From Escherichia phage PSD2002: a stretch of DNA of 64,000 nucleotides. The stretch lies in sequence record OK335775.1, one strand, 5' to 3'. This document shows, piece by piece, positions 48,637-52,132 of the stretch; position 1 is the first letter of the stretch; every line of letters starts with the position of its first letter. The translations under genes and the position numbers were made by a program. The notes below the pieces were generated by a model that was not told the DNA's origin, did no database searches, and saw only the letters and a program-made list of their open reading frames with translations.

Positions 48637-48737
48637 GTTATCGTAAACCAGTCATCAATAAATGCCCTAAACCATCTAAAGAGCGGATGGACGAACTCCA
48701 AAAATTCATTAATGCTGCTTTAGCAAGTAATAAATAG
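48633..48737 (+). CDS. Possible small protein (34 aa, uvsY.-1 position)
   Basis: ATGA overlap with uvsY stop; not in ORF track. Confidence 0.3.
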   Translation: MSYRKPVINKCPKPSKERMDELQKFINAALASNK

Positions 48738-48765
48738 GTATGTAAGTTAAACTAAGGAGACAATC

Positions 48766-48933
48766 ATGTCAGATAAGATTTGCGTTGTCTGTAAAACTCC
48801 AATCGATGCTGCATTGGTTGTTGAAACAGAAAAAGGTCCGGTTCATCCGGGCTCATGCTATAATTACGTTCAAAGCCTGCCGGTTACGGAAAACACTGAA
48901 GAACAGCTGAACGAAACCCAATTACTACTTTAG
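48766..48933 (+). CDS. Small Cys-containing protein (55 aa, uvsY.-2 position)
   Basis: AAGGAGA RBS; MSDKICVVCKTPID...HPGSCYNY (CxxC...C, zinc-ribbon-like); followed by terminator. Confidence 0.4.
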   Translation: MSDKICVVCKTPIDAALVVETEKGPVHPGSCYNYVQSLPVTENTEEQLNETQLLL

Positions 48934-48962
48934 TCTAGTGTGTATAGCCATTTATGGTTATT

Positions 48963-48990
48963 GGCCCTTCCGAAAGGTTGGGCCTTTTTT
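48963..48990 (+). terminator. Rho-independent terminator
   Basis: ggcccttcc-gaaa-ggttgggcc stem followed by TTTTTT. Confidence 0.65.
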
Positions 48991-48992
48991 GT

Positions 48993-49220
48993 TTAGAAAT
49001 CTTCCTCTTCCTCGTCGTCCATCGACTCCAATTCAGCTCTCTTACCAGCCAATGCATCACGCACGCTAATATCATCCGAATCACGAAGTTCGGCTTCCTT
49101 ACTACGAGTTTTGTAATACTTTTCCAATTCCTTCAGACCATCCATAGTCTGACAAGAACCAATTTTAGCCATGAAGCTTTCAATAGATGCTTCTTGAATA
49201 ACTTCTTTAAAGGTTTTCAT
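48993..49220 (-). CDS. UvsW.1-like small acidic protein
   Basis: 75 aa, acidic C-terminus (DDEEEEDF); lies downstream of uvsW as T4 uvsW.1 does, but here separated from uvsW by an endonuclease gene. Confidence 0.5.
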   Translation of the reverse strand: MKTFKEVIQEASIESFMAKIGSCQTMDGLKELEKYYKTRSKEAELRDSDDISVRDALAGKRAELESMDDEEEEDF

Positions 49221-49912
49221 AAATCCACCTGTTTCATTAAATTTCTGATTTTGTGACGAGAAAGACCCGTGGCTTCAGAAGCTTGTTTCATCGAGCCATA
49301 TTCAACACCATTTATAGTAACCTTTTTAGCTGCCGGGTTTTTAGATGGGTCTTTATATCTTTCTTTAGCTTTATCTGAAATTTTCTTAGAAGCTTCAGGG
49401 GTATGATTTTTACCATACATGCCGTTGCCGGCACCGGAATTTCTTTCAGATATAGCTTGACATTGTTCTTGCGTGTATTTATAAGGATTCGCTTTTTTAG
49501 TTGCAGATATTTTATCGCCCCATAAAATAGGTCTACCTTTAAATAAATTGCTCATATATTCTTTATGAGCTTCAGTGTGGTGCTTACCGTAAAATGGATT
49601 TCCTTCTCCAGTCTGAAGAATTGCCAATTGCCTACGTTCCCACCCATATGATTTACTAAATTGTCTTTTATGAGTCCTGGAGCTCATACCCATAGAAATA
49701 ACAGCTTTTATGAGACCGTAGTTATTTGGATAAATTTTGGCCAGTAATTTATGAGCTATAAAATGTTCTTCTGGGGTAAGGCGTACTCTATTTTCTTGAG
49801 TATCAGGCCCACCAATACACGACGGGATAATATGATGAGATTCTGTATAACCCATAGGTTTAGAAGCCTTTCGGCTTCTAATTAAATTGTCATAAATTTT
49901 TTGATAATTCAA
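49217..49912 (-). CDS. Free-standing HNH homing endonuclease (I-TevIII/Mob-like)
   Basis: 231 aa starting at TTG overlapping uvsW TGA; N-terminus MNYQKIY; HNH core GYTESHHIIPSCIGGPDTQENRVRLTPEEHFIAH; two NUMOD3-like repeats (G.GNP.YGKHHT.EA, G.GNGMYGKNHT.EASKKIS); C-terminal HTH-like INGVEYGSMKQASEATGLSRHKIRN. Confidence 0.8.
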   Translation of the reverse strand: MNYQKIYDNLIRSRKASKPMGYTESHHIIPSCIGGPDTQENRVRLTPEEHFIAHKLLAKIYPNNYGLIKAVISMGMSSRTHKRQFSKSYGWERRQLAILQTGEGNPFYGKHHTEAHKEYMSNLFKGRPILWGDKISATKKANPYKYTQEQCQAISERNSGAGNGMYGKNHTPEASKKISDKAKERYKDPSKNPAAKKVTINGVEYGSMKQASEATGLSRHKIRNLMKQVDL

Positions 49913-51405
49913 ATTTGGACCTCTTTCATGACATAATTAAATTTCTCGTCTGCGTACCGTTGAATACGTTCTAATCCATGTTTTAATGCATAATTTAGGT
50001 GAATGTATTTCTTTTTAGAATCTTTGGATTTAGGTTTCACCCCCATGTCATCGATGATGTCAAAAACTTGGGCTGTTGTTTTAGATTTGTGTTTACGTAA
50101 AACCCTTCCTATGGTTTGCAGTACCGTTACCTTGGATTTTACTGGATGGGCAAATACAACGTGGTGAAGGTTCTTAACGGAAATACCTGTAGAGAACACA
50201 CCATAACTTGCCACAACAATAATACCCTTACCATTTTCCGCCATTACCTTCAGAGCATTACGCGTTTCGGTATTAACTTCACCCGATACGTAATAAACTT
50301 CTTTATGTTGCTCTTTAACCATTTCAAAAAGAGTTTTACCGTGTTCGATGTTTTTAAACATCAGGAATACGTTCTCTTCTTTCTTAGCGAGTTTAACAGC
50401 TAAATTAGCAACCCATTTATTACGACGAGTAGCCTTAGTAATGACCTTGATTTCTGATTGGTAATCTTTACCTTTCATTTTAACCGTGAATTCGTCTGGG
50501 TATCGAAGGAAAATACTGTTGATTTTAAGGTCAGTAACCTGTCCTTCTTCCATTAATTGGGAGGTGGATACTGGCTTAAACACATCACCAAACAAGCCCA
50601 TATATTGCATTAAATTAGCTTTACCATCTTTTAAAGAACCCGACAAACCGAATTTAAACATACAGTTGGTTAGGCCTTCGATGATAGTAGAAATAGATTT
50701 ACCTGTAGCCAAATGGCATTCGTCGTTCATAAACATACCGAACTGAGCAAACCATTCTTTAGGTTGCTTGATAGCGGTTTGATAAGTTGAAACATAAATC
50801 ATTGCATCGGAATCACGAGCAGTACCTGAACGAATACCAAGCATTGCGGCTTTAGGGAACAGACGATAATCGATGAAGTCATTAATCATCTGGTCGACAA
50901 GTGCAGTAGTAGGAACTAATATAAGGATTTTACCTTCATAGTTCTCAACGTAATATCGACTCAGGAGCGCCTGGATTAATGATTTACCTGCGGATGTAGG
51001 TAAATTCAGAATTGCACGACGTTTTGTCAGGCCGTTGTATACGGCTTCATTCTGATACCAATGAGGCTCAATCTTGGTAGACCCTGAATAAATTTCTTGA
51101 GAAGCCACCCATGAGTCAAAATCTTCACGAGAAATATCTTCCTGTTCAAGAATACGTGGGTCAATCCACAGAGAGTATTCAAATTGTTCAGCGAACTTTT
51201 TAATTTGAGGAACCAATCCATATGGCAGTTTACGGTTATAATCCAGAAGGCGAATACGTCCGTCCCATTGACCATAACGAAATTTAGGGTTGAATTTATA
51301 TCCATCAGCTTCAAAGCTAAAATAGTCTCTGAGTTCGTAGAATGTAGATTCATCGCATTCAATACGGACATGACTAAAATTATCAAAATGTACTTGAATT
51401 TGCAT
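49909..51405 (-). CDS. uvsW: DNA helicase UvsW
   Basis: 498 aa; SF2 helicase motifs (PTSAGKS Walker A, DECH box) and end-to-end similarity to T4 UvsW. Confidence 0.9.
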   Translation of the reverse strand: MQIQVHFDNFSHVRIECDESTFYELRDYFSFEADGYKFNPKFRYGQWDGRIRLLDYNRKLPYGLVPQIKKFAEQFEYSLWIDPRILEQEDISREDFDSWVASQEIYSGSTKIEPHWYQNEAVYNGLTKRRAILNLPTSAGKSLIQALLSRYYVENYEGKILILVPTTALVDQMINDFIDYRLFPKAAMLGIRSGTARDSDAMIYVSTYQTAIKQPKEWFAQFGMFMNDECHLATGKSISTIIEGLTNCMFKFGLSGSLKDGKANLMQYMGLFGDVFKPVSTSQLMEEGQVTDLKINSIFLRYPDEFTVKMKGKDYQSEIKVITKATRRNKWVANLAVKLAKKEENVFLMFKNIEHGKTLFEMVKEQHKEVYYVSGEVNTETRNALKVMAENGKGIIVVASYGVFSTGISVKNLHHVVFAHPVKSKVTVLQTIGRVLRKHKSKTTAQVFDIIDDMGVKPKSKDSKKKYIHLNYALKHGLERIQRYADEKFNYVMKEVQI

Positions 51406-51419
51406 AAGTAATTCTCAGT

Positions 51420-51427
51420 TATAAATA
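51420..51427 (+). promoter_or_regulatory. Late promoter TATAAATA for inh-hoc
   Basis: Exact TATAAATA about 33 nt upstream of ATG at 51461. Confidence 0.6.
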
Positions 51428-51433
51428 TAGTTA

Positions 51434-51441
51434 TATTTATA
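51434..51441 (-). promoter_or_regulatory. Late promoter (TATAAATA on minus strand) for uvsW
   Basis: Plus-strand tatttata about 30 nt upstream of uvsW start codon. Confidence 0.5.
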
Positions 51442-51460
51442 CACCAACAAGAGACTAATT

Positions 51461-52132
51461 ATGGATACTCAATATATTGAAGAGCTTCGTGCACTCGAAG
51501 ATAAAAAAGAAGCTAAAGCTAAGTTAATCGAATACGGCGAACAGTTCGGTTTAAAACTTAAGAAAACCCGTTCGTTTGATAATTTGATTATCGATATCTC
51601 TGAAGGCCTTAAAGCCTTGGCTGACGAACCACTCCCAGAAACCGAAGGGTTGTCCATTTCTGATTTGATTGATGCTGCCGACGAACTTACAGGTGCTAAC
51701 GAATTTGTTGATGGTGCTGAACCAGCTAAAGAAGAAGCCACCCTGTTGTTCGATGCCCCTGAGGCTGCAGTAGAAGTCGTTGAGGTAGCCGAACTTCCTA
51801 AGGTAGAGATTATCGAAGAGGATGTTCCATTTGACGAAGAGAAATTCAAAGGGGCTATAGCCAAGGTTGTTGAATCTGAAAAACCTGTATTCTCTTTACC
51901 TGAAAACTTCAGTCCTAATCTTTTGCTTATCGGTAAGAACCCAGGTTATTGCACCGTTCCTTGGTGGATTTACCAATGGATTTCTGAGACTCCGGATTGG
52001 AAAGAACGTCCAACTGCTTTCCAACATCCTTCTGCCCACCAAACATTATTTAGTCTGATTTATTACATTAATCGTAATGGTTCAGTATTAGTACGTGAAA
52101 CTCGTAACTCATCTTTTGTCACTTTAAAATAA
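51461..52132 (+). CDS. inh: Probable Inh (prohead protease inhibitor) homologue
   Basis: 223 aa acidic protein in the T4 inh position between uvsW and hoc; identity by synteny only. Confidence 0.45.
   Translation: MDTQYIEELRALEDKKEAKAKLIEYGEQFGLKLKKTRSFDNLIIDISEGLKALADEPLPETEGLSISDLIDAADELTGANEFVDGAEPAKEEATLLFDAPEAAVEVVEVAELPKVEIIEEDVPFDEEKFKGAIAKVVESEKPVFSLPENFSPNLLLIGKNPGYCTVPWWIYQWISETPDWKERPTAFQHPSAHQTLFSLIYYINRNGSVLVRETRNSSFVTLK

Follow-up and report, generated by a model that had tools for sequence, protein, structure and literature searches.

A probable free-standing, MobE-like HNH homing endonuclease gene at the uvsW/uvsW.1 junction of Escherichia phage PSD2002

A stretch of 64,000 nucleotides (nt) of DNA from Escherichia phage PSD2002 (record OK335775.1), referred to here at its full length as the window, carries on its minus strand an open reading frame (ORF) of 231 codons at the junction of the helicase gene uvsW and uvsW.1. 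By comparison of its sequence with those of related phages, we consider this ORF to be, with high probability, an intact, free-standing HNH homing endonuclease gene (HEG) of the T4 Mob (MobE-like) family, which was recently copied into a QL01-like Dhakavirus where uvsW meets uvsW.1, with uvsW as its host gene and probable target gene. An initial annotation of the window, made from the letters alone, had given the coordinates of the ORF and a TTGA overlap with the uvsW stop, and both are correct, the gene lying on the minus strand. The locus is composed as follows.

49217..49912, minus strand: HEG, a free-standing MobE-like HNH endonuclease gene (ORF listing, PHROG 655, identity to MobE)
49909..49912, minus strand: TTGA overlap of the HEG start with the uvsW stop (sequence)
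49909..51405, minus strand: uvsW helicase gene, 498 amino acids (aa) (Pfam UvsW_N 6.3e-44, ResIII, Helicase_C)
48993..49220, minus strand: uvsW.1, 75 aa (Pfam UvsW-1 2.5e-24)

The assignment to the Mob family is carried by several matches. The HEG protein matches the PHROG 655 family 'homing endonuclease' at 4.7e-53 and T4 MobE in BLASTP with 36% identity over 219 columns (E=5e-27), the identity being about 60% in the first 60 residues, and in tblastn it also matches annotated mobD and mobE genes. The N-terminus MNYQKIY, initially described as I-TevIII/Mob-like, is identical in the HEG protein and T4 MobE. The gene is free-standing, with uvsW and uvsW.1 as complete ORFs on either side. No Rfam family, group I introns included, was matched at E<=1 across 48700-51600, on which ground we dismiss both a group I intron and any other known RNA. 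These results, together with the McrA profile match described below, uphold the initial reading of a free-standing HNH homing endonuclease. The flanks of the window match Dhakavirus genomes, and tblastn found no second copy (paralog) of the HEG elsewhere in the window.

Three parts can be distinguished in the protein.

49751..49837, minus strand: HNH catalytic motif, residues 26-54, HHIIPSCIGGPDTQENRVRLTPEEHFIAH (conserved residues; alignment to the McrA, IscB and Cas8-HNH motifs)
49376..49612, minus strand: two NUMOD3 repeats, residues ~101-132 and 145-179 (Pfam PF07460)
49226..49351, minus strand: C-terminal beta-hairpin and two helices, residues ~188-229, a putative I-TevI-like helix-turn-helix module (AF2, Foldseek)

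Alignments of 54 and 67 homologs show no variation at H27, N41, H50 and H54 of the motif ESHHIIP...N...H..AH, and conservation of at least 90% at H26; the motif aligns residue by residue to those of McrA, IscB and Cas8-HNH. A profile built from the homologs matches, among PDB entries, the HNH motif of McrA (6ghc) at 6e-4, a group II intron maturase at 0.018 and Cas8-HNH fusions; the same profile matches the I-TevI DNA-binding domain (1i3j) with residues 40-72 at 2.7e-4. The AlphaFold (AF2) model has a mean predicted local distance difference test score (pLDDT) of 89 for the whole chain, and for residues 1-104 a pLDDT of 89.7 with a predicted template modelling score of 0.81; a putative beta-beta-alpha unit is modelled around the motif (strands 24-27 and 42-45, helix 47-60). 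Against the assignment stands the result that Pfam HNH families gave zero matches to the HEG protein even at E<=1. T4 MobE (24.6 bits) and the endonuclease of phage Bp7 (26.7 bits), both homologs, pass the Pfam HNH cutoff of 21.4 bits, which the T6 homolog does not reach (17.4 bits). Membership in the HNH group is thus attributed from the motif and from transitive homology, without a direct Pfam HNH match: of the HNH core proposed initially (HHIIP...N...H), the motif and its invariant residues hold, and the expected domain hit is found in the homologs MobE and Bp7 and missed in this protein.

The two NUMOD3-like repeats also proposed there are recovered by PF07460 in two stretches at 5.6e-12 (45.8 bits, cutoff 20.4). 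The C-terminal module, formed in the AF2 model by strands 198-200 and 203-205 and helices 208-215 and 219-229, scores below cutoff at the sequence level, both for PF20987 I-TevI_DNA-bd (E=0.067, 13.5 bits, cutoff 27) and, over residues 108-227, for the NCBIfam entry TIGR01453 'group I intron endonuclease' (1.2e-7, 32 bits, cutoff 56). Foldseek relates it to 1i3j_A with a probability of 0.98, though with E=0.17 and TM(target) 0.46. The suggestion of a C-terminal helix-turn-helix-like module consequently finds better support in the structure model than in the sequence.

The occurrence of the gene is that of a mobile element. Homologs of 58% identity or more occur in 74 phage records, in all of which the gene adjoins uvsW, and the uvsW tract itself is present in about 1,057 phage records. 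The genera carrying it comprise Dhakavirus, Gaprivervirus, Tequatrovirus (including T6) and Bragavirus, with further Klebsiella, Morganella and Citrobacter phages; six metagenomic orthologs, of identity down to 49%, occupy the same uvsW/uvsW.1 junction, and two of 24 uvsW loci in IMG/VR carry it. The HEG is thus sporadic among T4-like phages, with a presence/absence polymorphism at an identical junction that is empty in QL01, JS98 and many others. The existence of near-isogenic HEG-less genomes bears out the mobile-element insertion that had been proposed. Some orthologs do start with ATG, but the ORF is sporadic and not an ancestral member of the uvsW operon. The ratio of nonsynonymous to synonymous substitution rates (dN/dS) is 0.045 against UP19 and 0.08 against SP18, denoting purifying selection.

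Two further kinds of insert were seen at this junction. Phages Bp7 (locus L003, 2018-2800) and UGJNEcP3/4 carry a different endonuclease there, that of Bp7 being of 260 aa with an HNH domain passing Pfam. The Bp7 gene has the same TTG/TTGA start, a KEVQL uvsW tail and a 5' hairpin, and its C-terminal two-thirds (200 residues) are unrelated, which suggests that DNA-binding modules are swapped on a fixed scaffold of N-terminus and junction. In an HNH-less T4-like phage (L023, 3497-3856; IMGVR_UViG_2974786931_000001) the junction holds a hydrophobic ORF of 119 aa, which starts with an ATG overlapping the uvsW stop (ATGA) and extends to the border of uvsW.1. The junction thus looks like a general hotspot for insertions.

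The boundaries of the insert can be drawn by comparison with the HEG-less QL01 and JS98, where uvsW ends in ...NYVMKQVDL and its TGA overlaps the ATG of uvsW.1.

49232..49923, minus strand: 692-bp insert relative to QL01, with the 6-bp direct repeat ATGAAA at its ends (junctions compared with those of QL01 and JS98)
49909..49923, minus strand: cassette-borne uvsW tail GAGGTCCAAATTTGA, encoding ..EVQI and stop (KEVQI and stop) (comparison with QL01 and JS98)
49217..49237, minus strand: resident uvsW tail ATGAAACAGGTGGATTTATGA, now the last residues of the HEG (MKQVDL and stop) (identical to the QL01/JS98 uvsW 3' end)
49913..50134, minus strand: HEG-linked divergent tract at the uvsW 3' end, a putative co-conversion tract (window versus QL01)

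The insert boundaries, which derive from the sequence and the junction comparison, are ambiguous by 6 nt. The pair uvsW and uvsW.1, which overlaps by ATGA in QL01 and JS98, is indeed split, as had been claimed; the insert is not strictly intergenic, since its entry lies about 15 nt before the uvsW stop and the uvsW tail is duplicated. At the end of uvsW the minus strand of the window reads ...ATG AAA GAG GTC CAA ATT TGA, and at the place of the cassette-borne tail QL01 and JS98 have CAGGTGGATTTATGA (..QVDL and stop). The cassette-borne tail contains a GAGG Shine-Dalgarno sequence (49923-49920) placed 7 nt upstream of the TTG. At its right end the insert reads in frame into the resident tail CAGGTGGATTTATGA, and the HEG protein ends in ...NLMKQVDL. 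The resident tail retains a Shine-Dalgarno sequence (AGGTGG) and the ATGA overlap for uvsW.1, whose ATG is overlapped by the TGA of the HEG (49219-49217). Related arrangements occur in other phages. A uvsW tail of the KEVxx type is present in 7 of 13 HEG-bearing (HEG+) loci; in SP18 uvsW and the HEG share the tail KQVEI, a perfect repeat of 19 bp, and in PM2 both genes end in KEVKL. The HEG of T6 ends in KTVNL, as does uvsW in HEG-less T4-type phages, and T6 uvsW ends in KEVKL.

Over about 4.7 kb the window and the HEG-less QL01 are 98-100% identical, with two exceptions, the insert itself and ~223 nt at the 3' end of uvsW. The last 252 nt of uvsW hold 63 of the 80 differences in this gene, against 17 over its first 1,242 nt (Fisher p=1.5e-36), and the boundary of the divergent tract lies 223 nt from the uvsW stop. 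The proportion of differences in this tract is 0.74 at synonymous sites, which are saturated, and 0.12 at nonsynonymous sites; divergence peaks near 49999-50043, a segment that codes for GVKPKS...KKKY.H. On the other side of the insert, the whole of uvsW.1 shows zero differences, and there are none in the 342 nt downstream from the uvsW.1 start. A one-sided patch of 150-223 nt adjoining the HEG is also seen in other pairs of HEG+ and HEG-less phages from three genera (UP19 versus JS98, Bp7 versus QL01, T6-type versus T4-type and a Klebsiella phage pair). Between T6-type and T4-type phages it covers the last 150 nt, with identity down to 58% at 100-150 nt from the stop. HEG-less pairs are far more alike in the same tract (82-100%).

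One-sided tracts of this kind are the footprint to be expected of homing from a cleavage site at some distance inside the neighbouring gene, as in SegF, SegG and MobE. The same patch in three genera suggests homing from a target within the uvsW 3' end, which we would place no further than ~150-220 nt from the end of uvsW, with the neighbourhood of the GVKPKS..KKKYVH codons (~49999-50043) as the likeliest position. We propose that in mixed infections the enzyme would nick or cut HEG-less uvsW alleles within these last ~150-220 nt, and that repair from the HEG+ genome would copy the cassette together with the adjoining uvsW 3' tract, leaving the one-sided mosaic patch.

The gene could instead be a decaying or domesticated remnant that is carried passively and no longer homes, the mosaicism of the uvsW 3' end being ordinary recombination among T4-like phages. 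Several observations agree with this and weigh against recent homing: HEG-less pairs themselves show some variation in the tract, with identity lowered to 82-92%; the tracts of different HEG+ genomes are mutually unlike (76-82% identity) and fail to cluster; and the window and UP19, for all their unlike uvsW tracts, have HEGs of 97% identity. The want of a Pfam HNH match and the unrelated 119-aa ORF, by which the junction may just tolerate insertions, can be read in the same sense. However, the protein is full-length, keeps all catalytic residues and is under strong purifying selection (dN/dS 0.045-0.08), the near-isogenic state of the window and QL01 makes the acquisition recent, and the divergent patch adjoins the HEG on one side only in three genera. 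We consider a passive remnant very unlikely and retain the reading of an intact homing endonuclease gene. A common donor for the HEG+ tracts was tested and ruled out: the tracts do not cluster, and the best database match to that of the window, in ESCO10, reaches only 85.7%. Given this dissimilarity, the tracts are not accounted for by one co-conversion from a shared donor, and one would have to suppose either repeated events with unsampled donors or patchwise repair.

The initial annotation had also placed the start of the gene at TTG, and the evidence agrees. The TTG at 49912-49910 is the first start codon following the in-frame stop, and it is composed of the wobble base of the last uvsW codon and the TG of the uvsW TGA (49911-49909), the shared bases producing the TTGA overlap. 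In all 13 orthologs the start lies at the same nucleotide position beside the uvsW stop, the codon being TTG in six (the window, UP19, SP18, Bp7, T6 and locus L034), ATG in four and GTG in three; 12 of the 13 keep an NTGA overlap with the uvsW stop, L035 having TAATG instead. Since the first base of the start is the wobble base of the last Leu/Ile codon of uvsW, it is free to change with UvsW unaltered. Among 80 wider family members from viral metagenomes ATG is used in 78, GTG in two and TTG in none, and TTG is thus peculiar to the uvsW-site clade.

We also weighed whether translation might not begin at this TTG at all, the protein starting at an internal ATG (Met20) or arising as a UvsW-HEG fusion through a frameshift where the two genes overlap. 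In favour of this, TTG initiates weakly and rarely and is absent from the 80 wider family members, and the GenBank annotation of SP18 picked a downstream ATG. However, position 20 is Ile in SP18, and not Met. Upstream of this first ATG, Y3 is invariant and M1 and Y7 nearly so in 54-67 homologs, a helix is modelled at residues 3-16 with pLDDT 96-97, and dN/dS over the first 19 codons is ~0.04 against SP18. At the homologous position 7 of the 13 orthologs have ATG or GTG, and all have a start codon; GAGG stands 7 nt upstream of the TTG. As for frameshifting, the overlap sequence varies among the orthologs, and by our own reading, which is not a tool output, they share no slippery heptamer. Another mode of initiation is therefore most improbable, and we take the TTG as the true start.

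By analogy with the mobE/nrdA overlap, translation of the HEG would, as initially suggested, be of low level and coupled to that of uvsW, proceeding by termination-reinitiation at the weak TTG. All seven loci with the GAGG-containing 'KEV' tail start at TTG or GTG, an association only suggestive in so small and non-independent a sample. RNAalifold on positions -50 to +70 around the start in seven orthologs gave no conserved structure hiding the Shine-Dalgarno sequence or the start (consensus -1.1 kcal/mol). The fold of the window itself around the start has z=-2.0, and since it is not conserved in the seven orthologs a conserved hairpin sequestering the ribosome-binding site, as in I-TevI or Aeh1 mobE, was dismissed.

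A conserved structure is found slightly downstream, inside the 5' end of the coding region.

49860..49881, minus strand: 9-bp hairpin with a GAAA loop, UUAGAAGCC-GAAA-GGCUUCUAA (+31..+52 of the HEG ORF, codons 11-18)

With -13.4 kcal/mol it is the strongest local structure within ~1.1 kb. Hairpins of -12 to -15.6 kcal/mol stand at the same position in 12 of 13 orthologs with differing stem sequences, as in T6 (GAGCCC/GGGCUC), a Klebsiella phage (GAGAGGC/GCCUCUC) and L034 (AGGGCUCG/CGAGCCCU), and the residues encoded beneath differ by lineage (RSRKAS, RAQNRAR, ERRKAS, RGLKRGL). The stems of SP18 and L036 contain G-U pairs, which are possible in the sense strand only, and this points to an action at the RNA level. 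T4 mobE has a hairpin at +33..+54 (-16.7 kcal/mol), and a weak intrinsic terminator, at which about 30% of transcripts end, is described in the mobE 5' end (PMC2988022). We propose that the conserved mRNA hairpin at codons 11-18, whose position matches this weak terminator, probably damps HEG expression further.

Against such a role speaks the lack of a U-tract 3' of the hairpin, which leaves its function uncertain; it could serve for attenuation, as a translational brake or for stabilisation of the mRNA end. A canonical intrinsic terminator was dismissed, there being no U-tract and no call in a consensus scan, and so was a universal feature of the family, a strong hairpin occurring at this position in just 7-10 of the 80 wider homologs. 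The hairpin may equally have nothing to do with regulation of the endonuclease and be a 3' stabilising or processing element of the uvsW message, or a by-product of protein coding. It lies just ~30 nt past the uvsW stop, T4-type genomes have a GGGC-UUCG-GCCC hairpin right after the uvsW tail sequence (T6 locus), and the missing U-tract fits here too. On the other hand, the encoded residues vary by lineage, so the palindrome is not forced by coding, and T4 mobE, at another genomic site, has a hairpin at the same codons with ~30% transcript termination reported. We hold the non-regulatory explanation to be somewhat unlikely.

A bolder and rather doubtful reading would take the cassette as a self-contained 'seamless operon insert' that has co-evolved with the host operon and tunes its own dose. 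The cassette would supply a substitute uvsW C-terminus and a ribosome-binding site, borrow the resident uvsW tail as the C-terminus of the HEG and keep uvsW.1 coupled. The dose would be set via the wobble base of the last uvsW codon (TTG, GTG or ATG) and the conserved mRNA hairpin, and repeated homing and escape would make the last ~220 nt of uvsW hypervariable. If this were true, a selfish endonuclease would be driving an arms race within a helicase gene that is highly conserved elsewhere, and this end of uvsW would be a synonymously saturated mosaic.

Transcription of the HEG may be ascribed to a promoter in front of uvsW.

51434..51441, minus strand: late-promoter consensus TATAAATA upstream of uvsW (pattern search; promoter function presumed)

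Ten orthologous loci keep this TATAAATA, at about -1530 relative to the HEG start, and for this reason the HEG is probably co-transcribed with uvsW, which would make it late. An exact T4 late-promoter consensus TATAAATA also occurs within the HEG ORF (49476-49483, minus strand, +430), ~260 nt upstream of uvsW.1. It is retained in the window, UP19, SP18, L033 and L035 and absent from more distant orthologs, and it could give uvsW.1 a late transcript of its own or be a coding coincidence (PYKYT).

Among known systems, T4 MobE is the nearest. MobE is counted among the active endonucleases, as an enzyme nicking its target, and the start of mobE overlaps the nrdA stop (PMC2988022). In both proteins NUMOD3 repeats come after the HNH domain. 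Each gene has a start codon that overlaps the preceding gene's stop and a GC-rich hairpin at codons ~12-18, and each is sporadic. They differ in that mobE lies between nrdA and nrdB and the HEG at uvsW/uvsW.1, the presumed target being likewise another; mobE starts at AUG and the HEG at TTG; the end of MobE is Cys-rich, whereas the C-terminal module of the HEG appears I-TevI-like; and the HEG hairpin is without a U-tract. The nuclease activity of the HEG is a prediction from sequence. T4 SegE is a free-standing GIY-YIG homing endonuclease encoded between inh and uvsW and targeting uvsW (PMC2988022). It shares with the HEG the free-standing state and uvsW as target or host gene, although it is of another nuclease family and is placed 5' of uvsW, on the opposite flank; segE is absent from the window, where inh and uvsW are adjacent. 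I-TevI (1i3j) also has a NUMOD3-type element, joined to a C-terminal helix-turn-helix of the kind predicted for the HEG, but it is intron-encoded with a GIY-YIG catalytic domain and is related to the HEG in the DNA-binding half only. The closest relatives are the other uvsW-site genes, namely T6 ORF179, SP18 gp197 and those of UP19, ESCO10, ACG-C40 and Klebsiella/Proteus phages, with the same site and architecture at 58-98% identity, several of them also with a TTG start and a duplicated uvsW tail.

The HEG is an uncharacterised but unsurprising addition to the known MobE-like free-standing HNH homing endonucleases; it is already in GenBank under uninformative or automatic labels, and the understanding of homing endonucleases in general is unchanged. 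Literature searches on uvsW in combination with homing endonucleases, and on uvsW.1, turned up no paper describing this HEG. The Edgell review (PMC2988022) lists 15 T4 endonuclease sites, to which uvsW/uvsW.1 is an added one. The locus also offers a clean natural case of probable recent homing, in which the near-isogenic empty site of QL01 shows the limits of the insert, the one-sided tract and where the target is likely to lie. Furthermore, the mobE-type layout, with a start over the upstream stop and a 5' coding hairpin, is common to a second Mob lineage, and the use of TTG in 6 of 13 orthologs versus 0 of 80 in the wider family makes start-codon tuning testable.

Some database entries call for correction. 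The HEG protein is 100% identical to the GenBank 'hypothetical protein PSD2002_0132', and its orthologs carry automatic labels only ('homing endonuclease', 'hypothetical protein' as in T6, or, wrongly, 'GIY-YIG homing endonuclease' and 'group I intron endonuclease', labels for which the domains give no support). The RefSeq coding sequence (CDS) of SP18 (NC_014595, gp197, 199 aa; L002, 2010-2705) begins at an internal ATG, leaving a 92-nt gap after uvsW and losing the first 32 residues, among them the HH of the HNH motif; the SP18 locus itself keeps the TTG/TTGA start. In the records of T6 (MH550421; L006, 1-1504: uvsW, uvsW-B) and Bp7 (L003) uvsW appears as two CDSs, which may reflect frameshifts or sequencing errors upstream of the endonuclease.

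Two other RNA structures were noted nearby. Inside the uvsW.1 coding region (~49130-49157, minus strand) another recurrent hairpin, CAGACY...RGUCUG, is present in the window (-9.7 kcal/mol) and, at -12.1 to -14.2 kcal/mol, in SP18, a Klebsiella phage, L036 and L038; it may be a mere reflection of conserved codons (CQT.DGLK). Between the convergent genes uvsY.-2 and uvsW.1 the window has, at 48960-49000, a GC-rich hairpin beside a T-run, which corresponds to the bidirectional terminator reported downstream of uvsW.1 as conserved in T4-like genomes (PMC1524935).

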